This document shows, one piece after another, positions 11,114-53,853 of a stretch of 64,000 nucleotides of DNA. Below the pieces are notes generated by a model. The model was not told where the DNA came from and searched no databases. It saw nothing but the letters and a program-made list of their open reading frames with translations. The stretch lies in NCBI GenBank assembly GCA_030593165.1, contig JAUVHR010000001.1, forward strand, positions 25,025 to 89,024, written 5' to 3'. This DNA comes from Candidatus Thorarchaeota archaeon (GTDB lineage: Archaea > Asgardarchaeota > Thorarchaeia > Thorarchaeales > Thorarchaeaceae). Both the position numbers and the translations under genes were made by a program. The first letter of the stretch is position 1. Each line of letters opens with the position of its first letter.

Positions 11114-11246
11114 TCAATGATACCTCACTACTCTCTCAAATACTTCAAATTTAAGGATTTCACTACTAACCTAGACTAACAACCGAATACACAACACCAC
11201 GTTTATCAATGCAAACATATCTGACTAGTCTAAAGAGGGGTTATCA

Positions 11247-11825: not shown

Positions 11826-11980
11826 GTGTTCGGCCCACTCAGAACGTCGTCCTAAGAAGAGGCCTTATATAGCATCTAAGAGCAATATATAACAAGTACA
11901 AATTTCCTGATGAGGATTTCAACAATTAACAATACTCCAGTCTATTGACTATATACCCCAACGTTTAGGTGATTAATTAA

Positions 11981-12505
11981 ATGCCACACTCCTTCAACAA
12001 CGACTTATTTCGACTAGTGGTCGAAGAGATTGCGGGCAAAGAAGGGGTTGACGTAGCAACAGTACTTGCAAATGCAGATGAAACGACTGACGAAGAGATT
12101 GCCACGAAGACAGACCTGAAGCTTAACGTTGTACGAAGGATTCTATACAAACTACATGACAACCACCTTGCATCTTATCGGAGAATTCGCGATACAAATA
12201 CAGGTTGGTTCCTGTACTATTGGAAGATAGATCCCAAAAAGGCACAGGCATTAGTCAATCGCAAGAAACGCATGGTCCTTTCCTTGTTGGAACAGCGGCT
12301 TGAACACGAGAGTAACAATGATCTATACTCTTGCGCAAATGGCGATTCATCCCCCGTACCCTTTGAGGAAGCCATGAACCTATCGTTTCGTTGCCCAACA
12401 TGCAATGAACAACTCGAATATGTAGATAACAGCAGAGCAATCAGTTTTCTTCGCAAGCGAGTAGAGGAACTCCGTGCAGACCTCCAAGCAACTTCTACTA
12501 CTTAG
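11981..12505 (+). CDS. tfe: transcription factor E alpha (TFIIE-alpha homologue)
   Basis: Winged-helix N-terminus (EEIATKTDLKLNVVRRILYKLHDNHLASYRR..WFLYYW) and a zinc ribbon (CPTCNEQL). Confidence 0.8.
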   Translation: MPHSFNNDLFRLVVEEIAGKEGVDVATVLANADETTDEEIATKTDLKLNVVRRILYKLHDNHLASYRRIRDTNTGWFLYYWKIDPKKAQALVNRKKRMVLSLLEQRLEHESNNDLYSCANGDSSPVPFEEAMNLSFRCPTCNEQLEYVDNSRAISFLRKRVEELRADLQATSTT

Positions 12506-14020: not shown

Positions 14021-14129
14021 GGGGCAGTAGTCTAGCCCGGCTATGATGTCTCGCTTACACCGAGAAAACGATTGGAAATCATTCCTTCGTTCTCGATGGT
14101 CGCTGGTTCGAATCCGGCCTGCCCCACCA
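14021..14129 (+). tRNA. tRNA-Val(UAC) with one ~30-nt intron 3' of the anticodon stem (non-canonical position); CCA encoded
   Basis: Acceptor is GGGGCAG/CTGCCCC. Anticodon arm is TCTCG-CTTACAC-CGAGA. T arm is GCTGG-TTCGAAT-CCGGC. The extra sequence AAACGATTGGAAATCATTCCTTCGTTCTCGA lies between the anticodon stem and the variable region. Confidence 0.75.
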
Positions 14130-17786: not shown

Positions 17787-17926
17787 GCCGCAGTGGCCTA
17801 GCCTGGTTAGGGCGCGAGACTCATAATCTTCCCAGAATCTCTGGGATACGACTGGGGTCAATAGTTTCGCCAAAATCGAGATGAGAAATCTCGAAGTCGA
17901 GGGCTCGAATCCCTCCTGCGGCACCA
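17787..17926 (+). tRNA. tRNA-Met(CAU) (elongator or Ile2-type) with a ~62-nt canonical 37/38 intron
   Basis: Acceptor is GCCGCAG/CTGCGGC. The 5' half of the anticodon arm, CGAGA-CTCATA, is followed by the intron and then A-TCTCG. T arm is GAGGG-CTCGAAT-CCCTC. Confidence 0.8.
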
Positions 17927-39639: not shown

Positions 39640-39710
39640 GTCACTACAAGAAGTTGGCAAGTACCTTATCACAGTCACGATAGAGTCACTTGATAGGAAA
39701 TGAAGAAGAA

Positions 39711-39775
39711 AGTGCTGCCCCCGCCGGGACTTGAACCCGGTTTCAAGAATGATATTTTCTTGCGTTGTTTGACAC
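39711..39775 (-). repeat. decayed tRNA-Asp 3' portion (copy 1, no T-loop intron)
   Basis: agtgctgcccccgccgggacttgaacccgg matches the tRNA-Asp 3' end. A degenerate anticodon stem (CAAGA..TCTTG) is still visible. There is no 5' acceptor strand. Confidence 0.7.
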
Positions 39776-39838: not shown

Positions 39839-40696
39839 ATGAAATTCGTTAGAACTGGAAAGTATAGACAAGATGCCCTCGAGCGTTCAGTCGAGATTAA
39901 TTCTCTTGAGGAAGCACGGGCGCGATTGAAGCGAATGAACTACTTACTTGGATTTGTCAGAGAACGAAATCCAGAAGTTCTTCTGGAATACGTAAACAAT
40001 CTCCTAGCCAAATATCAGGGTCTACTGGAGGATGAGCGAATGAAAGCAAATCCATTTGACCTAGACGAACTCGTATCTGAGAGTCCAAATATGACCGAGC
40101 ATTTTGAACTCGCAAGAGTTTTTCTGAACTACTTTCTACAGATACTTCAATTACCAGCTGAAACCAGCCTGGGGAAAAATAAAGTTGTTAACAGGAACTA
40201 CTTTCAATCATTTTCATATCTTAGCTATTACAATTTACTAGCTTTAACTGAAACTCTTGGCCGAACAGATGCAATTGCCCTGTACAAGAAATTCGTTACA
40301 CACTACATAATCGATAGTAGGAATCCAAATAGAGATACTTACGACAATCTCGAAACCCTTTATGCGAAGGCAATAAAACTCAAAGAGGTACCATCTGAGT
40401 GGGTAATTGTTCACGGAATGATTGGGGATGGAAAATATGCTTATCGGAACGATAACTGCCTATTGCTTGATGCTACAGAAGACCTGCCCGATTCTGAGCT
40501 AAAATACTATGTTTGTTGTTATGGAGATTTTGAAAACGCCAAGAATCATCATGACAGTATAATCCTAACAATGGAGCACACACTCGCCCAAGGGGATCCG
40601 TACTGTTCCCGTGTATATCATGACACTCGGGTTGACTGGGACTTACGGCATCCTCCGAAGAGTTTCTGGGACAGTATGAAACCTGATAATGAATAG
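39839..40696 (+). CDS. hypothetical protein (C-terminal Cys/His cluster CCYGDF..HH..H..GDPYC)
   Basis: 285-aa ORF that fills the interval between tRNA fragment copies 1 and 2. Confidence 0.5.
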   Translation: MKFVRTGKYRQDALERSVEINSLEEARARLKRMNYLLGFVRERNPEVLLEYVNNLLAKYQGLLEDERMKANPFDLDELVSESPNMTEHFELARVFLNYFLQILQLPAETSLGKNKVVNRNYFQSFSYLSYYNLLALTETLGRTDAIALYKKFVTHYIIDSRNPNRDTYDNLETLYAKAIKLKEVPSEWVIVHGMIGDGKYAYRNDNCLLLDATEDLPDSELKYYVCCYGDFENAKNHHDSIILTMEHTLAQGDPYCSRVYHDTRVDWDLRHPPKSFWDSMKPDNE

Positions 40697-40725
40697 ATGC
40701 AGAAGCTGAGTCTGGTAAGGAGAAA

Positions 40726-40770
40726 AGTGGCGCCCCCGCCGGGATTTGAACCCGGGATAGTCCAAGTATC
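40726..40770 (-). repeat. tRNA-Asp 3' fragment (copy 2, no T-loop intron)
   Basis: agtggcgcccccgccgggatttgaacccggg is the acceptor 3' strand plus an intact T arm (CCGGG-TTCAAAT-CCCGG) plus CCA and trailer. Confidence 0.8.
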
Positions 40771-40906: not shown

Positions 40907-42061
40907 ATGAGATTTCCGGGTCTTATTATTCTTACATTAATTGTAGTCATGCCTATTTCGAGCCCTATTACTGTTTCATCTATGAAAGCTGAGATGGCGA
41001 ACCCATACTTGTTGGCACAGACAGAAAACCCATCAGCCAGATTCCTACCAGGTATGGTCTATGACCCTGTAAATGAACACGTTATGTTGTTTGGAGGAGG
41101 ATATGGTGCTGCTTCGCTTGACGATACTTGGGTTCTTGATTATGAAACCAGCACTTGGACCGAGCTAGTACTATCAACCTCTCCAAACCCGCGACACTCA
41201 CATGGCATGGTCTTTGATTCGAATAATGAGGTAATCATCCTTTTCGGTGGTTACAATGGAGCATCCCCAGCTAGAGACACATGGGTCTTCAATTGCACAT
41301 CAGAAATATGGACTGAGGTGACACCTGAGATATCCCCTCCCGAAAGAATGTCTCACGCTATGGTATATGATTCAGTAAATGGAAAAGTCATTCTCTTCTC
41401 CGGATATGGTCTAGATGGTCCTGAGGTTGACGATACCTGGACCTACGATTACACAACAAATACTTGGGAGGAGATGAATCCTACAGTATCCCCCCACGCA
41501 AGATATGGGGCAGCTTGTGTCTATGATGACGTAGATGAAACTATGATCATCTTTGGAGGCAATTCTAATGGGTACTTCTCAGATACATGGAGTTACGATT
41601 ACTCAACTGACACATGGACCGAGCTATCTCCCATGACTCATCCGATACCGCTCAAATGGTCTTCTATGACATATGACTCAGTGAATCAGAAATCTATCCT
41701 CTTTGGGGGTGACATAAACTCTCCTATCGTATCCAATAAGACATGGATTTTTGATTCTGCAGTCAATGAATGGGAGGAAAGTGAAACTACAATTGCTCCA
41801 TCAAGCAGAGAGGCATGTGGATTTACTTTCGATTCTAGAAATGAAAAGGCCATTCTCTTTGGGGGAACAAAGGGAACTGGTCAACCCGGAGACCCTTTCA
41901 ATGAAACGTGGGCTTATGATTATACAACGGACTCTTGGACTAAAATAGAGCATGAAATAGGTGATATTCCTCTACCATTAGATTCACTTTTGATTCTCGG
42001 TACAATAACTTTGGGAGCCGTTGCACTCGTTATTGTATATGCTTATTTCAGGAAGAGATAG
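40907..42061 (+). CDS. secreted/membrane-anchored Kelch-repeat beta-propeller protein
   Basis: Signal-peptide-like N-terminus, about 6 repeats of ...FGG...DTW.YD...W.E..., and a C-terminal TM segment. Confidence 0.7.
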   Translation: MRFPGLIILTLIVVMPISSPITVSSMKAEMANPYLLAQTENPSARFLPGMVYDPVNEHVMLFGGGYGAASLDDTWVLDYETSTWTELVLSTSPNPRHSHGMVFDSNNEVIILFGGYNGASPARDTWVFNCTSEIWTEVTPEISPPERMSHAMVYDSVNGKVILFSGYGLDGPEVDDTWTYDYTTNTWEEMNPTVSPHARYGAACVYDDVDETMIIFGGNSNGYFSDTWSYDYSTDTWTELSPMTHPIPLKWSSMTYDSVNQKSILFGGDINSPIVSNKTWIFDSAVNEWEESETTIAPSSREACGFTFDSRNEKAILFGGTKGTGQPGDPFNETWAYDYTTDSWTKIEHEIGDIPLPLDSLLILGTITLGAVALVIVYAYFRKR

Positions 42062-42106
42062 TCTATCAGATATTCCAACACATATGTTCATCGACTTGAT
42101 AGAAAG

Positions 42107-42224
42107 AGTGGCGCCTCCGCCGGGATGTTCCAAAATCACCGAAGTGGTGATTCTTCTTGAACCCGGTTCTCAAGAGATCCGTTCCAAGGTGTCAACCACA
42201 ATGGATTGACAGTCTTGAATGCTA
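42107..42224 (-). repeat. tRNA-Asp 3' two-thirds (copy 3) carrying a canonical 37/38 intron and the T-loop intron
   Basis: Aligns with 45662-45749, apart from a 30-nt insert exactly between the anticodon-loop A37 and C38. The acceptor 3' strand is CGGAGGC. No matching 5' acceptor strand was found. Confidence 0.75.
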
Positions 42225-42330
42225 GACTCTCATCATAGACTATTTACCTCTTAGAATTCAAAACAGACGCGCTAGTGGGAGAGAATCGAACAAGCACTAT
42301 GACATATCCTGTCACAATCTATAACGAAGC

Positions 42331-43083
42331 CTACCTAGACCAATTAGAATTATCAACAGCTTCATATCCACACTTCAGACATTTAGCTCTGAACTTCCCC
42401 AACTCTGCTTTTCGTATAGCCACTTCTCCAGGGTATGGAAGATTAAGCTTTGCCCATCTGGTATTCAGACATTTTCCCCTACACCAAATTTGCACCAAGT
42501 ATTCTATTGGAGTAGATGCGGCATATGCTGGCAATGACGGTAAATCAGGCCCAGATCGTACTGAAACATGTTCCATCATTCTCTCATGGTACTCAGAATC
42601 TTCTTCTTCAGCATCATATATTACATGAACAGGGTTGAAATACTCAGTCCAACTGAAGTCCACATTATCTGTCCAAGAAACAAGGAAAATTTTCTTCACT
42701 CCTCGATGCATCAGGTCCTGTATACACTCACCTCCTGCATCGAATTTCAAGGAGTCTATTGGGTAGACTATTGCGATATCAATACTACGCGGAGATGATT
42801 GCCAAGTGGTCCGTTTTATTGTGTCTGGAAAGAGAGTGAATCCCCTTTGAACACTAATCGGTTTACCAATCTTCGGATCCCTGTCTAGCCCCAATGTTTC
42901 CCCCAATATCTTCAGGTTATTTGTCCGAAAGAGAATTGTAGCTGGAGCTGGATACTTTGAAAGAACGAGTTCAAGGACAAGAGGATGCTTCATCTTTTGG
43001 TGTGTACCTGTTAGAAGCAGAGTCTGATTGGTTCCCTTGAGGAAAGAAGATATTTTTTGGATGGCTTGCAATTTAGTATTCAT
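42331..43083 (-). CDS. hypothetical protein with C-terminal Zn-ribbon
   Basis: 250-aa ORF with CRGKC...CLKCG. Confidence 0.45.
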   Translation of the reverse strand: MNTKLQAIQKISSFLKGTNQTLLLTGTHQKMKHPLVLELVLSKYPAPATILFRTNNLKILGETLGLDRDPKIGKPISVQRGFTLFPDTIKRTTWQSSPRSIDIAIVYPIDSLKFDAGGECIQDLMHRGVKKIFLVSWTDNVDFSWTEYFNPVHVIYDAEEEDSEYHERMMEHVSVRSGPDLPSLPAYAASTPIEYLVQIWCRGKCLNTRWAKLNLPYPGEVAIRKAELGKFRAKCLKCGYEAVDNSNWSR

Positions 43084-43247
43084 ATCTGTATCATCTTTCT
43101 ATGAGTAGATACCGTAATAAAATCAGACCCTAGTTTCAAGAGTGAAGTATTAGAGTCACCTAATCCTTACTTGCTTCGAGTAGCTGTCCTCAGCTGTACA
43201 AATTCGCTGCATTAGTTTGATTAGTTTTGGCATGATATCTTTGAATT

Positions 43248-43592
43248 TTGAATATTTATTGGGAGTCATACCTTGGAAAGGATATTCATTGGAGCACGTC
43301 AACCCTAGCACTCATTTTGGAAGAACTGATGGTCAAGGAGAAAGCAGCAGAACTCGGTATCTCAATAACTGAGGAAGATAACTACTATTCGATTTTGAAG
43401 AAAGTTAAGGAAAAACTGAAGGAAAAAGGTACAAGGATGAGTCGTGATTTCAAAATAGCTGACGCACATCGTAAAATAAGAAACGATGTGTTTCACGAGG
43501 GGTGGAATGCTACTGAAGAAGAAGCCTACGATATAATAGGACATGTGAGAAATTTGGTAACCTTTTTGAATCTCAAGCCAATTAAGAGATAG
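43248..43592 (+). CDS. small HEPN-like protein (Rx4H motif)
   Basis: AHRKIRNDVFHEGW matches the R-N-x-x-x-H HEPN signature in an all-helical ~110-aa protein. Confidence 0.5.
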   Translation: MNIYWESYLGKDIHWSTSTLALILEELMVKEKAAELGISITEEDNYYSILKKVKEKLKEKGTRMSRDFKIADAHRKIRNDVFHEGWNATEEEAYDIIGHVRNLVTFLNLKPIKR

Positions 43593-43606
43593 ATTACCGG
43601 ATGAAA

Positions 43607-44182
43607 TTATAGTTGAATATCAAAAACAGGAGCATTGGGTTCTTCAATTACGCCATCATGAAATATAATCCATCTACAGTCTCGCATCTCTTTGCCCAAA
43701 ACCAGATAGAATCCATACTTGTAGTGATAGGTTGTTGTCAATTGCACAAGTTTGTTAGAATCATACCTTCTTGTTTTCGGCTTATCAGTAGTCCATTTCT
43801 TTAACTCAAAACAAATGAAGTCAGATTCAGAATTTGCTTCCCTTTTGTGTACTATAATATCGACATATCTTCGTCCTTTTCCGCCAATTTTGAGAAAGTA
43901 CTTCTGATCTTGTTCGTCCCATATTATATTGCCATTTTCATCCAACACTGGATTTCCCTCGTTATCTAGCCTTTTTTTGTAGGAGCTATCATAATGACTG
44001 TCAACAAAGAAATCCTCCCCAATTATGCTTTGAAGATGATGTGCTAAACGAAAAGTAAAGCAAAGTTCATGCATCATTTTATCCTGTTTTCTTTTGAATA
44101 GTTCAGCATCAATTTTATACAGTCTAATGAGAGTGTTTCTTACTAACTCTTTTACCTCTTCTAAAGAAGAATCACGATTCAT
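43607..44182 (-). CDS. PD-(D/E)xK nuclease-fold-like protein
   Basis: RRYVDIIVHKRE ... FICFELKKW gives the D ... E-x-K arrangement. Confidence 0.5.
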   Translation of the reverse strand: MNRDSSLEEVKELVRNTLIRLYKIDAELFKRKQDKMMHELCFTFRLAHHLQSIIGEDFFVDSHYDSSYKKRLDNEGNPVLDENGNIIWDEQDQKYFLKIGGKGRRYVDIIVHKREANSESDFICFELKKWTTDKPKTRRYDSNKLVQLTTTYHYKYGFYLVLGKEMRDCRWIIFHDGVIEEPNAPVFDIQL

Positions 44183-44406
44183 ATCTTACCCTCCATACGT
44201 AACCCTTTCATGAAACGGAATAACATAGTATTAATTTCTGTTGCTTTCCCAAAAGTGACCAATGGTACAAGATAATCACTGAAGTACAAAGTCTTGCGAA
44301 TCTATCACCATAACACCACTCGAATAAGAATATCAGAACAAGAAGGAGTTTATCTGTTCACGAATTTACAGCTTATGTAGCAGCATAACGTTGGAATTGG
44401 ACTAAT

Positions 44407-45594
44407 ATGACTTCAGATGATCTAAAACGTTTCTACATGTTGTATTTCGAAAAGGGGTTTCGAATCAAAAAATTCACCGTTGACGTATCACTTGGTAGCA
44501 AATACAAAACAGTGATAGAGCTGGTCAAGGATGAGATGAGAGAAATCATCAAGTCCGATGAAGAGGACATTGCTCATACCATCCTCAGATTCAATAACAT
44601 CACTAAATCTGATGGAACCGTTGGTCTTGCTAAAATTAGGGATTCAAGAAAATACTATGATACAATCTCAGACTTCGCTGAAAACAGAGAGGACAAAATA
44701 AAGAGAGCTCTTGAAGACCTTAAAGAAGGAAAGTCCCCGTTTCAAGGAGGGTTTTGGCATGACTTTGACAAAGCATTAGTCAAGTTACTGTTTGAGAAAA
44801 CTTCGTCCAACGATTCCGACCTACTATGGTTGAAAGAGAATTACTTTCACCTTCTTGCTTTCTATCTTAATGAAGCCAAAGAGATGATGGGTAATACCAG
44901 AGATCTGCTCTTTGCAAAACACAAGGATATTCGCTCCATATCAGATGCAGCTGATAGGATACTGTCTAAAGCTTTTCTCGTCAAGAAAGAGAAGAAAAAT
45001 CCAGTCGAGCTCTATAAAGCATATCGTCCACATCTACCTGATTCTCTTGAAAGTCACTCAGAACGAGTGTCTATTCAACTAGCCTACCTTGACGATCTCA
45101 GAACAACACTAACCAAGGCTGGCTCTCAAGAAAAGAGTATCAGGATTCTTTACGTCTTGGATGTCTATCGTCGTGTCTATGAAATGACTCTCCCAATCTT
45201 GGACCTGCTACGTATTGCCATTCTCCTTCATAATGAGGAAAAAGAAATTGAATATAGTATGTCAGCTAACGATATTGTCACCATTTTAGCTGAGAATGGG
45301 TATTCTGGATTTGTAGAAGCTTTCAATCCCCAAATCAGACATTGTGAGTCCCATCTCGCAACAAGGATTAGTGAAGGCAAGGGGAAGGTGCTTCTAACAA
45401 AAAGGGAAGGTCTTCGTCGAGTAACGATTCAAGAGTATAGCTATGAGGACATAGTTAGCTACCAAAGTCGGCTGTATGACGTGGTATTTCCCGCTCTTTA
45501 CTATACTTTCGTAAAATTGGATGGATTTCTCAAACTCTTGTTATTAGATTCGTTCGAATATCAACTCCTACTGATATCTAAAATTGCTGCATGA
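44407..45594 (+). CDS. hypothetical helical protein with a second Rx4H motif (IRHCESH)
   Basis: 395-aa ORF. FNPQIRHCESHLATRI resembles Abi/HEPN-type motifs. Weak. Confidence 0.4.
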   Translation: MTSDDLKRFYMLYFEKGFRIKKFTVDVSLGSKYKTVIELVKDEMREIIKSDEEDIAHTILRFNNITKSDGTVGLAKIRDSRKYYDTISDFAENREDKIKRALEDLKEGKSPFQGGFWHDFDKALVKLLFEKTSSNDSDLLWLKENYFHLLAFYLNEAKEMMGNTRDLLFAKHKDIRSISDAADRILSKAFLVKKEKKNPVELYKAYRPHLPDSLESHSERVSIQLAYLDDLRTTLTKAGSQEKSIRILYVLDVYRRVYEMTLPILDLLRIAILLHNEEKEIEYSMSANDIVTILAENGYSGFVEAFNPQIRHCESHLATRISEGKGKVLLTKREGLRRVTIQEYSYEDIVSYQSRLYDVVFPALYYTFVKLDGFLKLLLLDSFEYQLLLISKIAA

Positions 45595-45663
45595 TATTGA
45601 TGCGGTACCACAAAGTTGCCCTTGTGGCTGTCTACTTCAATTTTTGATACAAGAATGAGAAAG

Positions 45664-45801
45664 TGGCGCCCCCGCCGGGACATTCCAAAACCACCGTAGT
45701 GGTGATTCTTCTTGAACCCGGGTCTCAAGAGTGACAGTCTTGAATGCTATTTCGGGCATCATGGGAAATCCATGATGTTGACCGGACTACACTACAGGGG
45801 C
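45664..45801 (-). tRNA. tRNA-Asp(GUC) with two 30-nt introns (D-loop and T-loop)
   Basis: The reverse complement gives acceptor GCCCCTG/CGGGGGC and the D arm GTGT-AGTCCGGTC[intron AACATCATGGATTTCCCATGATGCCCGAAA]TA-GCAT. Anticodon arm is CAAGA-CTGTCAC-TCTTG. T arm is CCGGG-TTCAAG[intron AAGAATCACCACTACGGTGGTTTTGGAATG]T-CCCGG. CCA is encoded. Confidence 0.8.
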
Positions 45802-45824
45802 ACTGGTAGCGGGGTCGAAATGGA

Positions 45825-45837
45825 ATTTTCTATTAAA
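45825..45837 (-). promoter_or_regulatory. TATA-like element of tRNA-Asp (TTTAATAGAAAAT on the tRNA strand)
   Basis: Lies 24-36 nt upstream of the tRNA 5' end. The same 13-mer recurs at 53487-53499, upstream of the 5' fragment. Confidence 0.55.
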
Positions 45838-45974
45838 CCTGTCGGAAGTTACACTCTAGAGGAATGGGATTTTTACAAATTCCTAAATAGATGGGAGGAT
45901 AAAATGTAAGAAAATATGTAAAATTCCTCCATACTAGCCCTCTCCTTACTTAAGAACGGTACAAGATTCCCGTT

Positions 45975-48900
45975 CTATCTCTTGATGAGCTTCTCCATTC
46001 TCATCAGTCTAACACACTCTTCCACTGCGCTGTCCTCATCCTCCTCACTGAGGTTGAACTCCCCCAGAATTGACCTGACCTCACTCTCAAAGTCCTCCGT
46101 ATCTATACGTCCGAATTCCCTAAAGTCATGAAGATGTCCTGTCACTGGCACTTTGTGACTCTGATCCTCTGACTCCAAGACCACATACATGACCCTCCCT
46201 CCTGCTGAGTCCTCTCCTATCGTCGCCAGGAAAAACTCGACCCTTGCTTGGTCCTCTTCGACTCCGTACATCTCGACTGCAACTGCCATCTCCTCTCGTA
46301 TGGCTGCGGTCATCCTCCTATCCGCCCTGACCCCGATTTCCTCTAGGAACACCTTCATGGCCTGTTCTAGAAATTCCTGCACTTCCGAGGTAGTCCACAG
46401 GGCAACGTTCCGTTCAGGGATTTTTCTCTCTCTCGTTTGTTCACTGCTCTTCTCCCTTAGACCCACTGTCACATACTCTGGTGTTATAGCAAAGAACGGA
46501 CTCCACCTGTCCGGGTCTCGTAGATGCGCTCCAGGAAGGTCTGGGTCAAGCCTCCGTCCTGTCAACTCCTCTAGCATCACTCTAAGGTGCCATGACTCCC
46601 GTACCTCTTCAATGCACTCTCTTCGGACCACAATCTTGAACGTATGCGTCACCCACTCTTGCTGTGGACTGGACCAATAGACAAGCTCCTGCGAACTCAG
46701 AAGGGCTCTCACTTGAGTGTCAGTGAACCGAGCCTCCATGAGTCCTATCAGTTCGGGTGTGAGAGTCTGTGTTGAGTCCACATGAACTCTCCAGCATGAC
46801 CCGTGATGTATCCCTGGCTCGTTGCTGACCCTCTCAGGTTCGGCCCAGTCACTCTCGTACCTGAATTGGTACAGGTGTCCCAAGGTCTTAGACCTGTGGT
46901 GGGCCTTCTGTATTGCCTCCATTGAGGTGTGTCTTAGGGGACAGGTCCAAGGGTCATGATACAGCTCCAAGGTCATATCGAACCCCTTGCTCGCATCCAG
47001 AAGCTCGTTTGCAGTGGGCGGGAGCTTCAGGGGTAGACCAACAAAGGGCTTGTGTCTGTTCACCCACGGTCTGAGTAATGCGACATCTTCATCATAGGAG
47101 ATGTCCTTGAACCTGTTCCAGATCAACCGTTTTCCGTTGATGATGACAGGTTCGCACTCGTTGTCAGGTCGCCTGAGAATCTCAAGAAGGTCAACTGTCC
47201 TGTTGATCAAGAGCTCTCCAAGCAACTCGTCAGAGGCTTTCTCTTCAAAGGTGATCTTGTACATTCGCTCTTCCTCATCAAGAGTGATCTTACAAATCGC
47301 AGGAGTGCATTTCTTCAGTCCTTTATTCAGGATAAGCAGGGCTATGTCAACTAGACTCCTCACTTGATGTATGGGAGTCCGCACATCGTCAAAGCCAACG
47401 GGTTGAAGATGAGGGTCTGCGGAGAGTGATATAGTGCGGATGAGGGTCACATCCTCAAACCGTCTGGTGGTGCAATGAACCCGTCCAACTGGAGTCCATC
47501 GTCGGTGCTCTCTGTCCCTTACCCAGAGGACCTGTAGTCCCTGATAATCTGCAATCATCACTGGTACTCTGACCTCATCTCCCTGTAGCTTGGCATACTG
47601 ACTGAGGAGATTCAGATTACTCTCACTCCAATAGGTCCTTGCTGACACCATCTCGTGGAGAAGCCTCAGAGGTGAGAGAGAGGGGTTGACTCCTTTTGGA
47701 CTCAGAAGGGCGGCATTCATGTCATAGATGCCTGGTGTTCGTTGGAAGAGCAACCAGAAACAAGTAGAGCCAGCAGCTCTTGAAGAGGGCAGGGCAATCA
47801 GTTGTCCAAACCTGACATTGGTCAAGGATACTTGCAGATCGAGTGATTTGTTGTGGGCGATGACACGTTGCTGTAGTCGTTTCAGAAGCCTATGTCTATC
47901 AAGCACTGACCTTCCTGTCCTGTGGCTCCTTGGATAGGCCGGTCTGAGTCCTAGACAAACAAGATGCCATGGTTGAACATAGTCCCACAGAGAATGATGT
48001 ACCTCTGTGAACGCTGTATCAGGGATAGACCCCAAGACGGTAAGTATCAGAAGGAAGAGATGATTCCCTGTGACTACCAAGATGTCAGGATGTCTTTTCT
48101 GAATTGTGGTCACATGTTCTCGCTGAGCCAAGGTGAGGTCTCTTGGAACAGTAGAGCGAAGAGGTAGCAGTCGCTCCCACACCTCTACGCTCAGAGGATT
48201 GGTCTCAAGAATCTGTCGGACGAGTCGAAGTCTGTTCATCAGAGTGGGTGTATCCTCTAAGTAAATCTCCTCACTAGTGGAATCAAGTGCTTCAGATAAG
48301 TGATCAAGTAGTTCTATCAAGTGACTCCCATCATCGAGTCTTAGGAACTTGATAGTGTCCCTAAGATATCGTATCTCTCTAAGCGCAATCCTGTAATCGT
48401 CCATTTCGCTGACCGAGAGATAGTACTCTGAGGGAGGAAGCGTGCACCGTTTTGGGGGAGCAACATCAAGCTCCATATGCCTGTACTCTCTCCTTTGATT
48501 GATGGTAGCCATCGGAAGCAAGAGCTTCACTCTTCCATCGACATCCTTCTGAGTTTGGACGTCGACCTGACCATCGTCCTCTTTCTGAGCATACACCTGA
48601 CTGGGTCTGAATGACAACATAGGGGAAGGGTCTTGTGGCATATCATATCCTGAAGTCACATGTTCAATCTTGAGTGAGAGGTTTGAGTCTGGTCCTTTGC
48701 TGTATTCGTTTTGAGAGAGGAGATGTGGGATGAATTCCATGGCACGTTCCAGTTTCTTCTCCATATGCTCACTACTGTATTGTGGTGAGGATGAACCAGT
48801 CCCCCTGTGAAAGACTGCCTTGCTCTTGCGCCCACCGGACCGGAAGTCCTTACCCCATCCTCTCAACGGCTCAATCCCGATCATCATACGTTCGAGAGGT

Positions 48901-51380
48901 TGACCCAATCGCTCAATGAAGATTCCTCGCTCATGGTCATTAGTGGGTGCCCTTGCTCCAGTACGATCCGGTGGCATTGCTACGTTCCAAACTATTGTAT
49001 TAACAAAGTTCTGCCACAGTGTCCCTTGATAGAATGGGGCAACACATCTTGTTGCATAGACTGTGCTACTCTGCGGAAGAGGTACGGGACGTGCAAACCA
49101 CAGGGTAGTGCTCTCGCTGGGGAGGGCTTGAATGATGGTTGTTGCAATCTCATCAAGATACTTGTGGTGTGAGTCCGGTGTGCTTCGACGAAGGGTCTCC
49201 CAGCCCGAAACCACTATGATAGGGTCTCGCCCCTCTCTCAGTATATCATCTATCCTTTTCCGGAGAGTGCCGATACGCTCACCATTATAGATACATGCCT
49301 CCACTTGATTCGACAGGTCCTTCACCTGGACACGTCGTTTGAAGAATCGTCTGATTGGGTCAGGCTGATACCTCAATCTAAACTGTTTCTTTCTTAGAAT
49401 AGGGTCATTGTACTCACCAACAAGGTCAAACCAGTACACGTCACGATGTCGCGCAAGACCATGCACGAACTCTAACCCATGCCATCGCTCTGCAATCACT
49501 GCAGCAGACTGGGAAGGAGAGCCTCCTCCCGGAACGGTGAGATAGAGGATGAACTCTTTCTGGTCCACAACTCGCTCACTGAATGGTTCTAGTGGAATAG
49601 GAGTGCTCAACTGCACAGTATCAGTGGCGGGTTTGGCAACAGAAAGCATTCTCATCGCGATTCTTAGGCGAGTATCATCATCAGAGGGGAAGAGGAGGTC
49701 GCCCTCAGATAACGTCCCATCAACACATCCATTGTACACTCTCAAGACAAGAGGAAGTACTGCATTACTGATGTCCTTCCAGTCCTGATACGAGTCGACG
49801 ACCAACACAGCTTTTACAAGCTTTTTCTGAGCATCAACATCCTTCCACATCACATTCTGATAATCTGTGAGAATAGAATCTTCATAGGCATCCAGTTGCT
49901 CAGTTTCGTAAGGATCGGGGGTGTTTGTGAGGACGTTCTCCCACTCGTCATTGGTCAGTTCTCTCCGATCCAAGACGAATTCACTCACTACATCATCCCT
50001 GTGAATAGAGCCTGACTCGATTCCATAGATATCGAAATCAAAAGCGCTCTTGGTCTTCAGGTCAATGACCATGAAGGGCTCACAAATCACGAGAGATGGA
50101 CCTCCATCAACCCGGGTCAGTTGCTTTGCCCGAGCCAATACGAGATCAGCTCGTCCTCTTCCTCCATCAATTGGGACTTCAGAGAGAAGAATGAGTCCTG
50201 AATCATCATATGCCATCTCTTTCCCGTGGTACACGATACCATTGAAACTGAAGGGGCTCTGGAAGTTGTGGGATACAAACCTGTGGATACGAACACCTAT
50301 TCTCCTGCTCTGTTCCTTTGCATGCCCCAAGAGTTCTTCAGAGTCCTTAGCTGTCAGAGTGTCACTCTCTAGCAAGTCCTCGGCGGTCTTGATGAAATCA
50401 GGATCCAGAACAACTCCCTCGTTCTTTGCAGAAGTGATTGCTTCTTGTAGGAAGTGGGTCTGTGATTCTTCCTCATCAGCTCTCTTCTCTTCCGTGTCCT
50501 CGATGACCTCATCTGACGTTTCTGCTCTGTCCTCAATAGCATCATCTGGTGTCAGGTCCTCCTCTGAAGGAGCATCCTCCGACACTGATTCCCAAACCTC
50601 TGACGTGATGGACTGACGTTGACCGTTCCTAGTACCATACTCTCTCTTTATCTGCTCTATAACGATTCTGAGTTCCTTGAGTCCACCTCGAACGTAATTC
50701 GGTCTACCAGACCTTCGCTCCGTGTAGACATAGTCCATGAAGGGGAGGAGCCTGAAGAGTAGTGCTTCGATGTACTTCTTGGCTTCCTTTAGTGGAACTC
50801 CATACTTCAGGCACTGTCTAGCAAGCTCCATCAGAGGGCTCCTGATCATATCTCCAAAATCGAGCTCTGTCAGATGGTTGTGCCTGACTGAATATTTCGG
50901 AGTCTTCGTTGATCCATGATACCCAAGTGCCAAAGACCCATCACTTCTCTCAATTGGAACAGGTTTCGGGAAGATATATCTCGATTTCACGACATCTCGT
51001 ATTCTGCTCCCGGCATAGTCCCAGAGGATGTTCAGATACTTCTTATTGCCCTCCTCCCGTTTCACACGTTTGGTTTCAGTGTTGCCATACCTCACCGAGG
51101 TCTTTAACATGATTCGAGAGAAGCTCCTTCGAAGAACATGTTCGACCTTGAGGAGTACTGATGCATCAGGGTGACGTTGAATTACAGTCTGCTGGTAGTT
51201 CCTCTTAGCCTCATCCCATATCTTTGCCATTCCCTTGATCCTATTCCCCTGTCCAAAGTACAACGGTCTTGACTTGCCTGTAGCTCTATCTCTGGCCAGT
51301 GCAAGTGTGATAGCCATACTCATCTTGAAGGCAGTAGTAAGAATTCTTGCAGGGTTTCGAGGATATTTATGATTAGCCAC
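45975..51380 (-). CDS. giant orphan protein (1801 aa): basic N-terminal domain, acidic linker, PD-(D/E)xK-like motif, ~1350-aa uncharacterised C-terminal region
   Basis: A single uninterrupted ORF. No Walker A, polymerase, helicase or recombinase motif was recognised. Residues ~395-445 (SEVPIDGGRGRADLVLARAK...EPFMVIDLKTK) fit D...D/E-x-K. Confidence 0.75.
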   Translation of the reverse strand: MANHKYPRNPARILTTAFKMSMAITLALARDRATGKSRPLYFGQGNRIKGMAKIWDEAKRNYQQTVIQRHPDASVLLKVEHVLRRSFSRIMLKTSVRYGNTETKRVKREEGNKKYLNILWDYAGSRIRDVVKSRYIFPKPVPIERSDGSLALGYHGSTKTPKYSVRHNHLTELDFGDMIRSPLMELARQCLKYGVPLKEAKKYIEALLFRLLPFMDYVYTERRSGRPNYVRGGLKELRIVIEQIKREYGTRNGQRQSITSEVWESVSEDAPSEEDLTPDDAIEDRAETSDEVIEDTEEKRADEEESQTHFLQEAITSAKNEGVVLDPDFIKTAEDLLESDTLTAKDSEELLGHAKEQSRRIGVRIHRFVSHNFQSPFSFNGIVYHGKEMAYDDSGLILLSEVPIDGGRGRADLVLARAKQLTRVDGGPSLVICEPFMVIDLKTKSAFDFDIYGIESGSIHRDDVVSEFVLDRRELTNDEWENVLTNTPDPYETEQLDAYEDSILTDYQNVMWKDVDAQKKLVKAVLVVDSYQDWKDISNAVLPLVLRVYNGCVDGTLSEGDLLFPSDDDTRLRIAMRMLSVAKPATDTVQLSTPIPLEPFSERVVDQKEFILYLTVPGGGSPSQSAAVIAERWHGLEFVHGLARHRDVYWFDLVGEYNDPILRKKQFRLRYQPDPIRRFFKRRVQVKDLSNQVEACIYNGERIGTLRKRIDDILREGRDPIIVVSGWETLRRSTPDSHHKYLDEIATTIIQALPSESTTLWFARPVPLPQSSTVYATRCVAPFYQGTLWQNFVNTIVWNVAMPPDRTGARAPTNDHERGIFIERLGQPLERMMIGIEPLRGWGKDFRSGGRKSKAVFHRGTGSSSPQYSSEHMEKKLERAMEFIPHLLSQNEYSKGPDSNLSLKIEHVTSGYDMPQDPSPMLSFRPSQVYAQKEDDGQVDVQTQKDVDGRVKLLLPMATINQRREYRHMELDVAPPKRCTLPPSEYYLSVSEMDDYRIALREIRYLRDTIKFLRLDDGSHLIELLDHLSEALDSTSEEIYLEDTPTLMNRLRLVRQILETNPLSVEVWERLLPLRSTVPRDLTLAQREHVTTIQKRHPDILVVTGNHLFLLILTVLGSIPDTAFTEVHHSLWDYVQPWHLVCLGLRPAYPRSHRTGRSVLDRHRLLKRLQQRVIAHNKSLDLQVSLTNVRFGQLIALPSSRAAGSTCFWLLFQRTPGIYDMNAALLSPKGVNPSLSPLRLLHEMVSARTYWSESNLNLLSQYAKLQGDEVRVPVMIADYQGLQVLWVRDREHRRWTPVGRVHCTTRRFEDVTLIRTISLSADPHLQPVGFDDVRTPIHQVRSLVDIALLILNKGLKKCTPAICKITLDEEERMYKITFEEKASDELLGELLINRTVDLLEILRRPDNECEPVIINGKRLIWNRFKDISYDEDVALLRPWVNRHKPFVGLPLKLPPTANELLDASKGFDMTLELYHDPWTCPLRHTSMEAIQKAHHRSKTLGHLYQFRYESDWAEPERVSNEPGIHHGSCWRVHVDSTQTLTPELIGLMEARFTDTQVRALLSSQELVYWSSPQQEWVTHTFKIVVRRECIEEVRESWHLRVMLEELTGRRLDPDLPGAHLRDPDRWSPFFAITPEYVTVGLREKSSEQTRERKIPERNVALWTTSEVQEFLEQAMKVFLEEIGVRADRRMTAAIREEMAVAVEMYGVEEDQARVEFFLATIGEDSAGGRVMYVVLESEDQSHKVPVTGHLHDFREFGRIDTEDFESEVRSILGEFNLSEEDEDSAVEECVRLMRMEKLIKR

Positions 51381-51504
51381 ATGTCCTATTAAACTTAATA
51401 TATAATAAATTCTTCGGGTAATTCGACTTTAATAAAAAACTGAATAGCTACGGTATTTCGTTTCAATTGGCCAATTTGGTGTCCTCATATCGTGCAATCT
51501 TAAT

Positions 51505-51614
51505 AACTTTATAAGAGATTTTCCAATACAAATGTACGAGTTCAAAAGTTCCCTTCGGGACAAGAAAGGGAGTGAACTCAATTGACCAGAAACGGGTCAG
51601 AACTTTATAAGAGA
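51505..51614. promoter_or_regulatory. two copies of aactttataagaga (TATA-box-like) in the divergent intergenic region
   Basis: Exact 14-mers at 51505-51518 and 51601-51614. The second ends 9 nt before the ATG at 51624, which is too close to that ATG for a standard TATA-to-start spacing. Confidence 0.45.
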
Positions 51615-51623
51615 ATCAGGCGA

Positions 51624-53315
51624 ATGACAATGGCTCGGTCCAAGGGTGTGACAATCGCGGTCAAGGTCCCTGTTAAGTGGGAATCGATGACTGAGAGGAC
51701 TAAGCAGAGGCTTAGGCAGACCGTTGGAAGAGACACTAGAGTGATTCGTGCATTCTTAGGGATAATGGAACAGCATGAAGACGAGTTGCTAACAGGTAAG
51801 AGCAGAATAAGAATTAACGACGGTGAGCTGGACCGGCTGACCATGACTGCACTCAAGGTCAAATCAGGAGCCAGTCAGAGAACCAGTGTTCCACATGACT
51901 TCAAGGTTCGATTTCCTCGAATCTCTCAGAACGAGATGACCGAGTGTAGACAGACTGCTGTCGCACTCTATGAGAGTTATCTCAGACTGAGAAAAAAGAA
52001 GGGGCGAAGAGCTTCACGTCCTACTTCAATCAATTGTAGTCGACGGATACCACGATGGGTCTTTTCCCAGAGATTCAAGCTTGTTGAAAAGAAGACCTCT
52101 ACCTCTCGATGGTGGCTTGATATCCGCGATGCTCTTGACTCAGTGCAAGAGGGGAGATCTCATCATGACAGACTGGTGGTCCCTCTCAAGATATCACCCC
52201 ACCACCTGAACCAGATCAGACGCGGTGAAGTGAAAGCCGTACAGCTCTTCACTGATAGACAACGAAAGTGGTGGCTAACAATTGCAGTTCGAATCACTAT
52301 CAATGAATCTCCAGAGGAGCATCTTCCCGTTGCTATCCTTGGAATTGACCTTGGTATTGAGAAGGCAGCTTGCTCAACCCTTCTTACTCCTGAGAAGACA
52401 CGAGAGACCCAATACTTTGTCCAGAGGGAGAAGGTCAAGTCAATCAAGAAGTACGATAGACTTGTTGCAGCTCTGCAAAGGGAGATGCATACTCGACAGA
52501 ACAATGGACTTGCATATGATGGGGTCACTGATAAGCTCGGTCACATGCGGTCCAAGAGAGAGAATGTTGCAAGGGAGTATGACCGGGTTCTTGTTCGACA
52601 GCTCCTCAACTACATCTCAGAACTCTCCAAGAAGTACACCCTCTATGTAGCCATTGGTCGCCTGAAGAATATACGAATGCGTGCTAAGCGAGGTAACTAC
52701 CAGGGGCGAAGGTTCAGAGGAATGATACACTCATGGGCCTTTGCTAGAATAACTGACAGTCTAAAGCATGGACTGGCTCAGCTTGGTTGGAAGGTTGATG
52801 GAAAGGACCCAAGGTTCAGAGCTGTTCCTGAGGGGTGGACGTCCATCATGTGCTGGATGTGTGGGAGCAAGGGAACTCGTCCCAAGCAGAACTACTTCCA
52901 CTGCCCATCTTGTGGTCACAAGACCAATGCTGATAGAAATGGTAGTATCAATATTGCTGCGCGCATGCTCAAGCTCACAAAGTCATTGCACAATGTGAGA
53001 GGACTAGGCCTGTGGACTAGAGCTCTTCAAAAGGCTCGACGTGCGCGACCGAAAGCCCAAGGGAGAATCTCGAAGAGATTGTCAAAAGGGAAGTCTTTAC
53101 TCTCCAAGAAAGGACCAACATCAGGTTCTGGAGAGTCCGCGGCCGTTCACCATGCTCAGATGAGTCTTCTCAGTTTCAGTGATGAATCTGGGATGGGTGA
53201 TAATGACCCTGCCGTGGGAAGAACTGTGGAAACACTCACTGTCGCTGGAAGTGATGGACCAGCTAAAGCACAGGAGAAAGAGGCCAGGACTGTAGGAGGG
53301 ATCCCATCCCGATGA
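51624..53315 (+). CDS. tnpB: TnpB / IS200-IS605 OrfB-like (Cas12-related RuvC + Zn-finger) protein with a ~115-aa low-complexity C-terminal tail; the track ORF starts at TTG 51582
   Basis: RuvC-I is ILGIDLGIEKAA. Also present are HSWAFARI, TS-I-MCWMCG...CPSCG (Zn finger) and RuvC-III (NADRNGSINIAARM). The block where RuvC-II hhhEDL is expected reads YVAIGRLKNIR. Confidence 0.8.
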   Translation: MTMARSKGVTIAVKVPVKWESMTERTKQRLRQTVGRDTRVIRAFLGIMEQHEDELLTGKSRIRINDGELDRLTMTALKVKSGASQRTSVPHDFKVRFPRISQNEMTECRQTAVALYESYLRLRKKKGRRASRPTSINCSRRIPRWVFSQRFKLVEKKTSTSRWWLDIRDALDSVQEGRSHHDRLVVPLKISPHHLNQIRRGEVKAVQLFTDRQRKWWLTIAVRITINESPEEHLPVAILGIDLGIEKAACSTLLTPEKTRETQYFVQREKVKSIKKYDRLVAALQREMHTRQNNGLAYDGVTDKLGHMRSKRENVAREYDRVLVRQLLNYISELSKKYTLYVAIGRLKNIRMRAKRGNYQGRRFRGMIHSWAFARITDSLKHGLAQLGWKVDGKDPRFRAVPEGWTSIMCWMCGSKGTRPKQNYFHCPSCGHKTNADRNGSINIAARMLKLTKSLHNVRGLGLWTRALQKARRARPKAQGRISKRLSKGKSLLSKKGPTSGSGESAAVHHAQMSLLSFSDESGMGDNDPAVGRTVETLTVAGSDGPAKAQEKEARTVGGIPSR

Positions 53316-53439
53316 TGACAGACAATGCTCTTGCTAACTGTAAGTTCTTCTTGAATTTGCAGGGTGGTGACACTGGCAAGAGAGGGGCGGAACACAGAAG
53401 TTTCAAGTTGGCGTTCACTCAACTAATATGAAATTGGTC

Positions 53440-53467
53440 ATGCTAGACCGGACTACACTACAGGGGC
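53440..53467 (-). repeat. intron-less duplicate of the first 28 nt of tRNA-Asp
   Basis: The reverse complement GCCCCTGTAGTGTAGTCCGGTCTAGCAT equals exon 1 plus the start of exon 2 of the 45664-45801 gene, with the D-loop intron absent. Confidence 0.85.
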
Positions 53468-53748
53468 TAAACAGGCCCAATCTTCGATTTTCTATTAAAG
53501 TTGTCGTTATATTTGCTGGCAAAAACGTAACCCTTTTACCGGTTTATGCGTCATAATCCATGGCTTTGAGTCTTGTAAGCCGCTAGATGATATGCTATTT
53601 TATCGCTTTATCGCAATCCTTTTATGGTTTCGAAAAACCCCGTCCGCTGCTCAGTTCGAACTGCTTCCCACTCATGTATGACCATAGATTGTATTATGCG
53701 TGAGCATACAATACCCTACATGGTCTGATGCTTGGTGTGCTGACGAAG

Positions 53749-53853
53749 GGGCTCGTGGCGCAGACAGGTAGCGCAGCAGGCTTTTACACTTGTTCCCATG
53801 GAATAAGTAAAGAAACCTGATGGCCGCGGGTTCAAATCCCGCCGAGCCCGCCA
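53749..53853 (+). tRNA. tRNA-Lys(UUU) with a ~28-nt canonical intron
   Basis: Acceptor is GGGCTCG/CGAGCCC. D arm is GCGC-AGACAGGTA-GCGC. The anticodon arm is GCAGG-CTTTTA[intron]A-CCTGA. T arm is GCGGG-TTCAAAT-CCCGC. Confidence 0.75.

Follow-up and report, generated by a model that had tools for sequence, protein, structure and literature searches.

TnpB elements are the ancestors of Cas12, their genes are among the most abundant in prokaryotes, and they normally rely on a small TnpA; those of the IS200/IS605 group make no target-site duplication. For Asgard archaea, TnpBs associated with a protein termed aCas1 have been reported in two groups, Cas1H-Asgard-1 and Cas1H-Asgard-2 (Altae-Tran et al. 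2023, PNAS, PMC10691335). A conserved GTTCACTCA motif lies downstream of the Asgard tnpB, the loci are flanked by repeats, and the aCas1 loci are proposed, with citation of Makarova et al. (2020, CRISPR J), to form a distinct transposon family with aCas1 as the transposase. Giant proteins are encoded by the aloposons of Heimdallarchaeia, which carry tandem genes for proteins of 3,000-6,000 aa (Otus and Ephialtes) and four upstream genes, including one for a MinD/ParA ATPase (Wu et al. 2022, PMC8813620). According to a 2024 survey, no non-viral integrated elements other than aloposons had by then been described from Asgard archaea. Here we analyzed 64,000 nt of DNA from a Candidatus Thorarchaeota archaeon (GCA_030593165.1, JAUVHR010000001.1, positions 25,025-89,024 of the forward strand; "the window"), in which a gene for a protein of 1,801 aa ("the giant") stands head-to-head with a tnpB gene within a disrupted tRNA-Asp gene. 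The pair is probably the core of a Thorarchaeota-specific mobile element, rare in other Asgard archaea, in which the giant and TnpB with its ωRNA always occur together and which is inserted in tRNA-Asp. We are highly confident that the element is mobile, targets tRNAs and encodes a functional TnpB-ωRNA, and moderately confident that the giant is its integrase.

A preliminary description of the locus had presented the giant as an orphan and the locus as a candidate for an undescribed mobility or conflict system. The conserved pair and the mobile, tRNA-associated element without a conventional integrase have stood up to analysis. The giant is not an orphan, and the system is not wholly undescribed, since aCas1-TnpB transposons with the same motif had been proposed in the text cited above.

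The giant gene and its TnpB partner

The two genes diverge from a shared intergenic region.

45975-51380, minus strand: giant gene, 1,801 aa, GTG start, conserved over its whole length across the family.
51381-51629, no strand assigned: divergent promoter region with conserved TATA-like boxes for both genes, the inner inverted terminal repeat and a hairpin, CTGACC-n-GGTCAG.
51630-53315, plus strand: tnpB of the small class, 562 aa from the conserved ATG, with the RuvC-I Asp, a Glu-to-Gly change at RuvC-II and an alternative Glu (VPEGWTS), the RuvC-III Asp and zinc-finger cysteines.

As noted earlier, the giant gene is a single open reading frame (ORF) and the longest in the window; rpoB is second, and rpoB, rpoA' and rpoA'' lie directly downstream in this archaeal stretch. 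The G+C content of the giant gene is 0.493, compared with 0.481 for rpoB and 0.493 for rpoA'; the impression that it is richer in G+C than the flanking housekeeping genes was therefore mistaken and applies only to the left flank. A word-indexed search returned 60 full-length homologues of ~1,400-1,950 aa with identities from 70% down to 24%, and those with a named source all came from metagenome-assembled genomes of Thorarchaeota. An exhaustive search of 1.84 billion representatives with a HMMER profile of residues 1-600 gave 155 matches (clusters at 50% identity), all of them giants (longest 2,353 aa) or fragments, and revealed no bridge to another family. In a scan of species-representative genomes, 68 giant loci were found, nearly all in Thorarchaeota, with single cases binned as Heimdallarchaeota, "Promethearchaeota" and Woesearchaeota. 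Diverged copies coexist in one genome: eight in CSMAG_2458, four in MAG_9, and three on one contig of Zod_maxbin.0292. No relatives were present on the viral contigs of IMG/VR. Alignment of the family revealed 93 near-invariant residues and only two variable stretches, the acidic linker (~270-330) and a second linker (~930-960); the protein is under strong purifying selection over its full length. A SNORD104-like Rfam match at 45972-46041 scored 19 bits against a gathering score of 40 and was taken as chance.

The divergent gene, previously described as TnpB-like, matched the Pfam family Cas12f1-like_TNB (PF07282) with 43.7 bits (cutoff 26.3) and NCBIfam guided_TnpB at 1.3e-24 (87 bits, under the cutoff of 100), as well as the Cas12f/Cas12u models of PADLOC and solved TnpB/Cas12f structures. 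Because all homologues begin there, its true start is almost certainly the ATG at 51630 (MARSKGVTI...) rather than the TTG at 51582 chosen by the ORF finder. The association of giant homologues with tnpB was examined in two ways. Contexts sampled by exact-protein look-up contained a divergent TnpB in 10 of 10 cases, ~150-340 nt from the giant, and the flanking genes were all different. Among the 57 of the 68 loci with 1.5 kb or more of sequence upstream, 56 showed an opposite-strand match to a TnpB hidden Markov model immediately upstream of the giant; in the remaining one, the giant gene is truncated. The giant-TnpB pairing is obligate.

Two classes of TnpB were distinguished. In the small class (~550-640 aa), to which the protein of the window belongs, GIDLG at RuvC-I, Gly in VAIGRL at RuvC-II, the alternative Glu of VPExWTS and NADxNG at RuvC-III were present in 32 of 32 proteins. 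The large class (~710-770 aa) has the canonical D/FE[DN]L/HADxNA residues in 15 of 15. A change of Glu to Gly with a compensating Glu on the next strand has been described as a "rearranged catalytic site" class that is thought to be active (PMC10691335). From these conserved residues, it is plausible that both classes keep the RuvC active site. A nuclease-dead TnpB comparable to the TldR regulators was considered and rejected, because the alternative Glu is invariant and the rearranged class has been described as active-type. TldRs have lost RuvC residues and have a truncated C terminus; here, the catalytic positions are kept or rearranged in 47 of 47 partners, and a C-terminal extension is present. 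This conserved extension of the small class (~110 aa past RuvC-III) contains LTKSLHSVRGLGLWTRA...SGSGESAAVH...DPAVxRTVE and is encoded by DNA that also specifies the 5' half of the ωRNA scaffold. In locus L006, a solo small-class tnpB (3661-5349, plus strand) has no giant adjacent to it and lies 2.3 kb from a large-class tnpB-giant pair (7665-9812, minus strand), showing that the tnpB unit can stand alone.

No recognizable integrase was detected in the element of the window by Pfam and NCBIfam scans, in agreement with the preliminary description. Likewise, no TnpA (Y1 transposase of the histidine-hydrophobic-histidine type or serine recombinase) was found between the tRNA halves of the window or beside the pair in the sampled loci, except in L014/L015. 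There, a 177-aa serine recombinase (Resolvase plus HTH_17/MerR; 11538-12071, minus strand) is encoded immediately downstream of the giant and could be either an IS607-type TnpA or an unrelated neighbor. Flanking thorarchaeotal genes unrelated to the pair encode proteins with eukaryote-like domains, namely YEATS and gelsolin (L004, 23807-24124; L010, 4522-5118).

Insertion in tRNA-Asp and the ωRNA

The region around the pair contains three tRNA-Asp sequences.

53145-53439, plus strand: ωRNA scaffold, ~300 nt, overlapping the 3' end of tnpB, holding the outer terminal repeat and ending in GGTC at the element boundary.
53440-53506, minus strand: 5' stump of the disrupted host tRNA-Asp, with positions 1-26 at 53440-53467 and the promoter at 53487-53506.
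45664-45801 (to 45844 with the promoter), minus strand: intact element-borne tRNA-Asp(GUC) between giant and cargo, with ~30-nt inserts in the D-loop and T-loop; promoter at ~45825-45844.
42331-45594, both strands: three AT-rich ORFs of 250 aa (minus), 191 aa (minus) and 395 aa (plus), either cargo or a separate islet.
42102-42227, minus strand: remaining 3' portion (positions ~18-76) of the disrupted host tRNA-Asp, which starts with GTCTAGCAT and contains an anticodon-loop intron of the host type.

ARAGORN and Rfam reported no tRNA-Asp near the giant. These copies escape both programs because their introns are non-canonical, and they were found by repeat analysis and manual parsing. The tRNA-Asp genes here carry inserts at a non-canonical D-loop position (20/21) and in the T-loop, besides the canonical position in the anticodon loop. 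Manual parsing of the intact copy gave a perfect acceptor stem (GCCCCUG/CGGGGGC), the anticodon loop CUGUCAC, a T arm and an encoded CCA. The repeated tRNA-Asp sequences noticed in the preliminary description are therefore real, as is the tRNA-Asp boundary of the insert, whose extent is probably larger than was thought: most likely, the element comprises 42228-53439 (11.2 kb).

The junctions were defined relative to the intron-less tRNA-Asp gene of locus L082. In the window, the terminal GGTC is followed by ATGCTAGACCGGACTACACTACAGGGGC, which matches the reverse complement of tRNA-Asp positions 1-26 exactly, and then by the promoter of that gene. At the far side, GTCTAGCAT corresponds to tRNA positions 18-26, and the same 9 nt end the 5' stump. 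This duplication, 9-11 nt long, was found at both junctions of the window and at the far junction of L061, which is the orthologous locus of a related genome (RpoB 91% identical and tRNA-Lys on one side, a homologue of ORF285 with 67% identity on the other). The L061 junction is the same as that of the window, with GTCTAGCAT followed by TCAAGACUGUCA and a homologous intron. The inserted pair differs: the TnpBs are 77% identical, whereas the giants share 28% identity over the N-terminal 600 residues and no detectable similarity over the C-terminal half. A third family member occupies the same tRNA-Asp/tRNA-Lys/rpoB locus in L082, in opposite orientation, with a TnpB of 42% identity and a truncated giant. 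The right-end junction at tRNA-Asp position 26 to 1 recurred in the window, in L061 and in L080 (with an internal deletion), and also in a decayed solo end in L080; truncated or decayed copies were present in L081-L083 and L080. The solo end (L080, 290-400) has GAGTGAAC and a TAGCAT junction to a degenerate tRNA-Asp D-loop and lies ~100 nt outside the intact end, which suggests successive insertions at one site.

Both the window and L061 have an intact tRNA-Asp inside the insert, next to the 3' end of the giant gene. The copy of the window shares the orientation of the giant and lies 173 nt from the giant stop codon; in L061, L080 and L068 the tRNA is inverted and lies 20 nt from the stop codon. 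The tRNA-Asp copies of L061 are at 11072-11179 (minus) and ~11975-12135 (plus), and one tRNA-Asp gene was miscalled as tRNA-Arg(ccg). The element-borne copies of the window and of L061 have a hairpin-forming insert of ~30 nt at the same D-loop position. The host-type remnants share the anticodon-loop intron instead, and the intact copy of the window lacks that intron.

Further tRNA sequences were seen in the window. Two tRNA-Asp-like 3' ends (T arm, acceptor and CCA) at 39709-39740 and 40724-40755 (minus strand) flank ORF285 (ATC_hydrolase-like, 39839-40696) and a Kelch-repeat gene (40907-42061) and resemble scars that previous integrations into tRNA-Asp would have left. Rfam, unlike ARAGORN, detected intron-containing tRNAs at 14021-14126, 17787-17923 and 53749-53850 (plus strand), the last reading as a tRNA-Lys(UUU) with a 29-nt intron that is a conserved neighbor of rpoB in L061 and L082.

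To assess other loci, the surroundings of the tnpB ends were compared with controls. In 10 of 46 loci, the 400 nt next to the tnpB end contained a tRNA sequence, as against 1 of 43 and 1 of 46 in the controls, the count being based on a small tRNA library that misses multi-intron genes. With ARAGORN, 13 of 48 loci had a tRNA no more than 1.2 kb away. This enrichment, together with the recurrent junctions, indicates that tRNA targeting is a trait of the family. An earlier conclusion that tRNA flanking is peculiar to the window, drawn from the lack of direct repeats elsewhere, was overturned by the anchored analysis of ends and the tRNA-library test.

Sequence conservation continues ~125 nt beyond the tnpB stop codon and ceases at GGTYA. 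An alignment of 17 small-class loci yielded 13 helices with 80 pairs, of which 44 showed compensatory double changes. Pairing was possible in 95.9% of the cells compared with 86.8% in shuffles, and none of 500 shuffles reached any observed measure; when the partners were slid by 1-3 columns as a control, pairing fell to ~40%. This predicted 13-helix structure represents the anatomy of the ωRNA scaffold, as judged from covariation. The invariant GTTCACTC(A) motif at 53413-53420 would pair with an upstream GGGnGGAAC, and the terminal GGTYA (GGTC in the window, ending at 53439) with an upstream UGACC. The exact 8-mer was present 97-107 nt past the tnpB stop codon (147 nt in L045) in 19 small-class loci, and the longer GTTCACTCA motif occupies 53413-53421. 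The ~23-nt block TTTCTnnnCAGTTGAGTTCACTC recurs in inverted form immediately before the tnpB promoter, the inner GTTCACTC copy being at 51570-51577 on the minus strand. The inner and outer copies thus bracket the unit of tnpB and ωRNA as inverted repeats. Beyond the scaffold, the plus-strand reading of the stump is the predicted ωRNA guide, which would be antisense to tRNA-Asp, and 5'-TCTTGA/TTGAA adjoining ATGCTAGACC is a candidate target-adjacent motif. The predicted transcript would start at ~53145, pass 53439 and take in 16-25 nt of antisense tRNA-Asp. The large class lacks the GTTCACTC motif. In four of its loci (L029, L056, L062 and L076), the tnpB-side flank holds a complete tRNA-Lys(CUU), the end of which is 82-100 nt away from the stop codon of tnpB; this class may target the 3' end of tRNA-Lys, with a downstream RNA much shorter than that of the small class.

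Domains of the giant protein

The giant had no family match in Pfam, NCBIfam, PADLOC or PDB sequences, whether searched whole, in segments or as a profile. AlphaFold2 models of two halves were considered alongside family conservation. Built with the family alignment, they had pLDDT (predicted local distance difference test) values of 83 and 82 (81.7 for the C-terminal half) and pTM (predicted template modeling) scores of 0.79 and 0.66. The following parts were distinguished.

50574-51380, minus strand: N-terminal domain, residues 1-269, mostly helical in the model, candidate catalytic (possibly Cas1-like) domain.
50463-50573, minus strand: acidic linker, residues ~270-306, variable and disordered, conservation 0.21 with gaps, pLDDT below 50.
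49851-50246, minus strand: RecB-type PD-(D/E)xK motif set, residues ~379-510 (E401, D412, (D/E)440-x-K442 and Q495-x-x-x-Y499), with alpha/beta topology in the model.
48831-49583, minus strand: RecA-fold domain, residues ~600-850, the range being taken from motifs and secondary structure.
45978-48545, minus strand: C-terminal ~856 residues, modeled with confidence but matching no structure or sequence significantly.

Several of the features first read from the sequence were recovered. The N-terminal part is basic and conserved, and the acidic linker that follows it is variable and of low pLDDT. The suspected PD-(D/E)xK signature proved to be a full motif set: D412, K442, Q495 and Y499 were found in 54 of 54 family members and E401 in 53 of 54, and position 440 is Asp in 33 and Glu in 21, so that the putative D/E-x-K residues are kept among homologues. 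The statement that no P-loop or helicase-like architecture is present has to be withdrawn. Among the best 50 Foldseek matches of the N-terminal half in the PDB were RAD51 paralogues, KaiC, DnaB and Elp456 (E = 5e-5 to 1e-3, probability ~1.0), and among the best 50 in a viral library were superfamily 4 (DnaB-like) helicases and UvsX. The Walker A motif of this RecA-fold domain is degenerate (TVPGGGSPSQSAA; family consensus TV[PS]G[RSK]GSP[SA]QSAA), without the conserved Lys at the GK[ST] position; a Walker-B-like WFDLxGEY is present, with D652 and G655 invariant. As RecA-fold matches made up both of these sets, any matches for the N-terminal and nuclease domains would have been masked. For the C-terminal half, Foldseek found no PDB match at E <= 0.001, with faint matches to RNase H folds at a probability of ~0.5 or lower.

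The N-terminal domain is invariant at E80, Y98-G99-N100, E102, R105, N117, H167 and D174-F-x-D177-M-I-R180. Its H167-x6-D174-F-x-D177-M-I-R180 (DFGDMIR) resembles, and is colinear with, H208-x9-D218-I-A-D221-I-I-K of Escherichia coli Cas1. The sole local hhalign match anywhere in the giant falls on this colinear block and is not significant: profiles of the N-terminal domain and of the full-length protein, compared with E. coli Cas1 and a type I-E alignment, gave a probability of ~0.5%. That Cas1 profile is narrow, the search seeded with E. coli Cas1 having listed only relatives of at least 85% identity, and a search with E. coli Cas1 itself scarcely reaches the other Cas1 subtypes in the PDB. 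The Pfam Cas1 model had no match in 26 family members even at E <= 10. In Cas1 (PF01867), an N-terminal beta-sandwich precedes the helical catalytic domain; the model of residues 1-269 consists almost entirely of helix with one small three-stranded sheet and has no such sandwich, and the invariant E...H...DxxD is present. A match to Tox-SHH (HNH/His-Me finger) was faint (E = 0.02) and occurred in 1 of 26 members. The N-terminal E/H/DxxD domain may thus be called Cas1-like at the level of motifs; since homology to Cas1 is unconfirmed, the giant is not filed as a Cas1.

Proposed mechanism, alternative explanations and known systems

The simplest reading is that of an 8-11-kb element that inserts at tRNA-Asp position ~26/27, generates a duplication of 9-11 bp and carries a replacement tRNA-Asp. 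The element would insert between the D arm and the anticodon arm of the host gene, leaving the 9-nt duplication, and its own intact tRNA-Asp would take over from the destroyed gene. The ωRNA guide would be transcribed from the flank and would consequently be antisense to tRNA-Asp. By analogy with IS200/IS605 TnpB, the TnpB-ωRNA may cut unoccupied tRNA-Asp sites and so promote homing or retention. The giant would act in place of TnpA, its N-terminal E/H/DxxD domain (which may be a Cas1-type integrase that has diverged strongly), RecB/Cas4-like nuclease and RecA-fold domain serving in breakage, joining and processing of DNA; staggered integration would yield the short duplication. The 30-nt D-loop insert splits the guide match into 6 + 22 nt and may shield the element's tRNA-Asp from its own TnpB.

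A number of observations weigh against this reading. The N-terminal domain is without statistically supported likeness to Cas1 or any integrase, and the C-terminal ~850 residues of the giant match nothing known. The giant-side end has no conserved terminal sequence, conservation stopping at the giant stop codon, and the ~23-nt terminal inverted repeats enclose only the tnpB unit and not the whole element. In most other loci, no direct repeat was seen in the 700 nt on either flank. A look-up of the neighboring RpoA'' gave no empty site, only short contigs that end at rpoB. The tRNA-Asp of L068 that corresponds to the intact copy carries no D-loop insert. The three cargo ORFs had no match in Pfam and NCBIfam and no homologues adjoining giants in other loci; their G+C content of 0.385 compared with 0.49 for the core, together with this lack of recurrence, makes the 11.2-kb boundary less than certain. 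Finally, the identities of TnpBs and giants across 1,128 locus pairs were almost uncorrelated (Spearman 0.12). Locus pairs with TnpBs 70-80% identical had giants with a median identity of 30%, and giants 58% identical can be paired with TnpBs of different classes. The two proteins may therefore belong to separable units, which is the main reason for caution about the role of the giant. Frequent recombination between co-resident elements within the conserved intergenic region would account for this, as would exchange of the repeat-bounded tnpB unit itself.

The composition of the cargo, its lack of recurrence and the tRNA-Asp 3' remnants at 39.7 and 40.7 kb are the reasons for retaining a shorter element as a possible, though not probable, alternative. 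The giant-TnpB element would then measure ~7.7 kb (~45802-53439), would have moved by site-specific recombination of the attachment-site (att) type between direct repeats of the 5' part of tRNA-Asp (22 + 6 nt plus promoter), and would have rebuilt the tRNA from an element-borne 5' half; the AT-rich 42228-45663, with the 3' copy of tRNA-Asp as its border, would be a separate integrated islet. A perfect 22-nt direct repeat with an 18/20 promoter match does enclose exactly the giant and TnpB, and the two outlying remnants show the 3' half to be a repeated integration target. This account is countered by L061, where the element-side tRNA-Asp is inverted and a host-type 3' remnant with the same GTCTAGCAT junction lies beyond it, an arrangement that fits only the insertion of an element with a whole tRNA, and by the intact copy of the window, which is free of the host-type anticodon-loop intron common to both 3' remnants. 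The decoupled phylogenies, the inverted repeats around tnpB and ωRNA, the solo tnpB of L006, the pairing of one giant subfamily with both TnpB classes and the failure to detect a transposase-like family in the giant would all be expected if the giant were an effector or cargo, for example in nuclease-based conflict or defense, and the tnpB unit an associated cassette bounded by terminal inverted repeats. TnpB would then mobilize next to giant genes or provide RNA-guided targeting for the nucleases of the giant. We regard this as unlikely, given the near-obligate pairing in a fixed head-to-head geometry with a conserved intergenic region, the lack of any other candidate for integration in the element and the position of the whole segment, giant included, between the two halves of a split tRNA; PADLOC, moreover, gave no defense-family match.

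Highly improbable, in our view, is a domesticated, non-mobile host module, that is, a paralogous family with a cellular role whose neighboring tRNA fragments stem from unrelated integrative elements. The purifying selection along the entire protein, the absence of relatives from viral contigs and the many loci without obvious flanking repeats would suit such a module. It is difficult to reconcile with flanking genes that differ at every locus, up to eight diverged copies per genome, truncated and decayed copies and a solo end, different members at the same orthologous site, and a junction, recurrent in independent loci, that falls within a tRNA gene at the very point where ωRNA conservation stops.

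The observation that the ωRNA ends in the CRISPR-repeat-like motif GTTCACTCA and a short variable segment invoked a bolder idea, which we consider a long shot: a Cas1-like integrase and a Cas4-like nuclease in the giant, coupled to TnpB, could constitute a living intermediate between a TnpB transposon and type V CRISPR-Cas. The giant would install or renew the ωRNA guide, as in a one-spacer adaptation, or the TnpB-ωRNA would direct integration into tRNA genes without Tn7 components. Returning to the mobile element inserted in tRNA-Asp, its interest lies in the replacement of TnpA by an obligate partner of 1,800 aa with two nuclease-type motif sets and a RecA fold. The element combines base-level precision in tRNA genes, a replacement tRNA, many paralogues per genome and reshuffled core genes. 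If the giant is the integrase, new DNA-integration machinery would be working alongside an RNA-guided nuclease in the closest archaeal relatives of eukaryotes; derivation of the N-terminal domain from Cas1, if true, would bear directly on the first union of adaptation modules and TnpB-like effectors. The intron-split tRNA copy offers a concrete case for the old idea that tRNA introns guard against targeting by mobile elements, and the compact TnpBs, for which ωRNAs are defined and a natural tRNA target exists, can be tested at once as genome-editing reagents.

Of the elements with which the locus may be compared, aloposons share integration into Asgard genomes, very large genes and an association with tRNAs. 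The relationship raised in the preliminary description finds no support in any point of anatomy: there is one gene of 1,801 aa here, paired with tnpB, and no ParA/MinD-like or other upstream gene in the window segment or, for ParA, in the sampled loci. Aloposons, for their part, have no paired TnpB, and nothing longer than 2,353 aa was returned by the exhaustive search with the N-terminal 600 residues of the giant. Casposons would resemble the element if the N-terminal domain is Cas1-like, as they combine Cas1-type integration and a short duplication with tRNA-gene targets and archaeal hosts; in contrast to them, the element has no PolB, no terminal inverted repeats around the whole and no canonical Cas1, and it has TnpB. 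The nuclease motifs of the giant agree with those of RecB/Cas4 PD-(D/E)xK nucleases in the invariant E...D...(D/E)xK...QxxxY and the predicted alpha/beta topology. They differ in lacking the Fe-S cysteines of Cas4 and in being embedded in a multi-domain giant. With the IS200/IS605 OMEGA (obligate mobile element-guided activity) systems, the element shares a TnpB with RuvC and zinc finger, an ωRNA that overlaps the 3' end of tnpB and extends to the right end, a guide taken from the flank, asymmetric ends and a likely role of TnpB in homing or retention. It departs from them in having a 5.4-kb gene in place of a Y1 or serine-recombinase TnpA, in the duplication of 9-11 bp, in its tRNA-gene target, its size of 8-11 kb, its tRNA gene and cargo, and in the inverted repeats around the tnpB unit.

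The closest counterparts are the aCas1-TnpB transposons, which, as far as the text considered here describes them, are likewise restricted to Asgard archaea, fall into two TnpB groups, carry the GTTCACTCA motif and flanking repeats and have a partner proposed to replace TnpA. The points of difference are the Cas1 domain, which in the giant of the window is unconfirmed beyond a colinear motif likeness, and several features that do not appear in that part of the text: a size of ~1,800 aa, a RecB-type nuclease, a RecA fold, tRNA insertion, an element-borne tRNA and decoupled phylogenies. Because lineage, the two TnpB classes and the motif all match, the giant-TnpB loci are likely to be the reported Asgard aCas1-TnpB loci and the giant the protein called aCas1. 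No paper joining Thorarchaeota and TnpB was found in the literature searched. To our knowledge of that literature, the domain architecture of the giant, the tRNA-Asp insertion with a short duplication, the element-borne tRNA, the ωRNA structure, the rpoB/tRNA-Lys/tRNA-Asp hotspot and the decoupled evolution of the two genes have not been described. Taken together, the element is probably a TnpB/OMEGA transposon with a non-canonical giant partner, likely of the poorly characterized Asgard aCas1-TnpB family.

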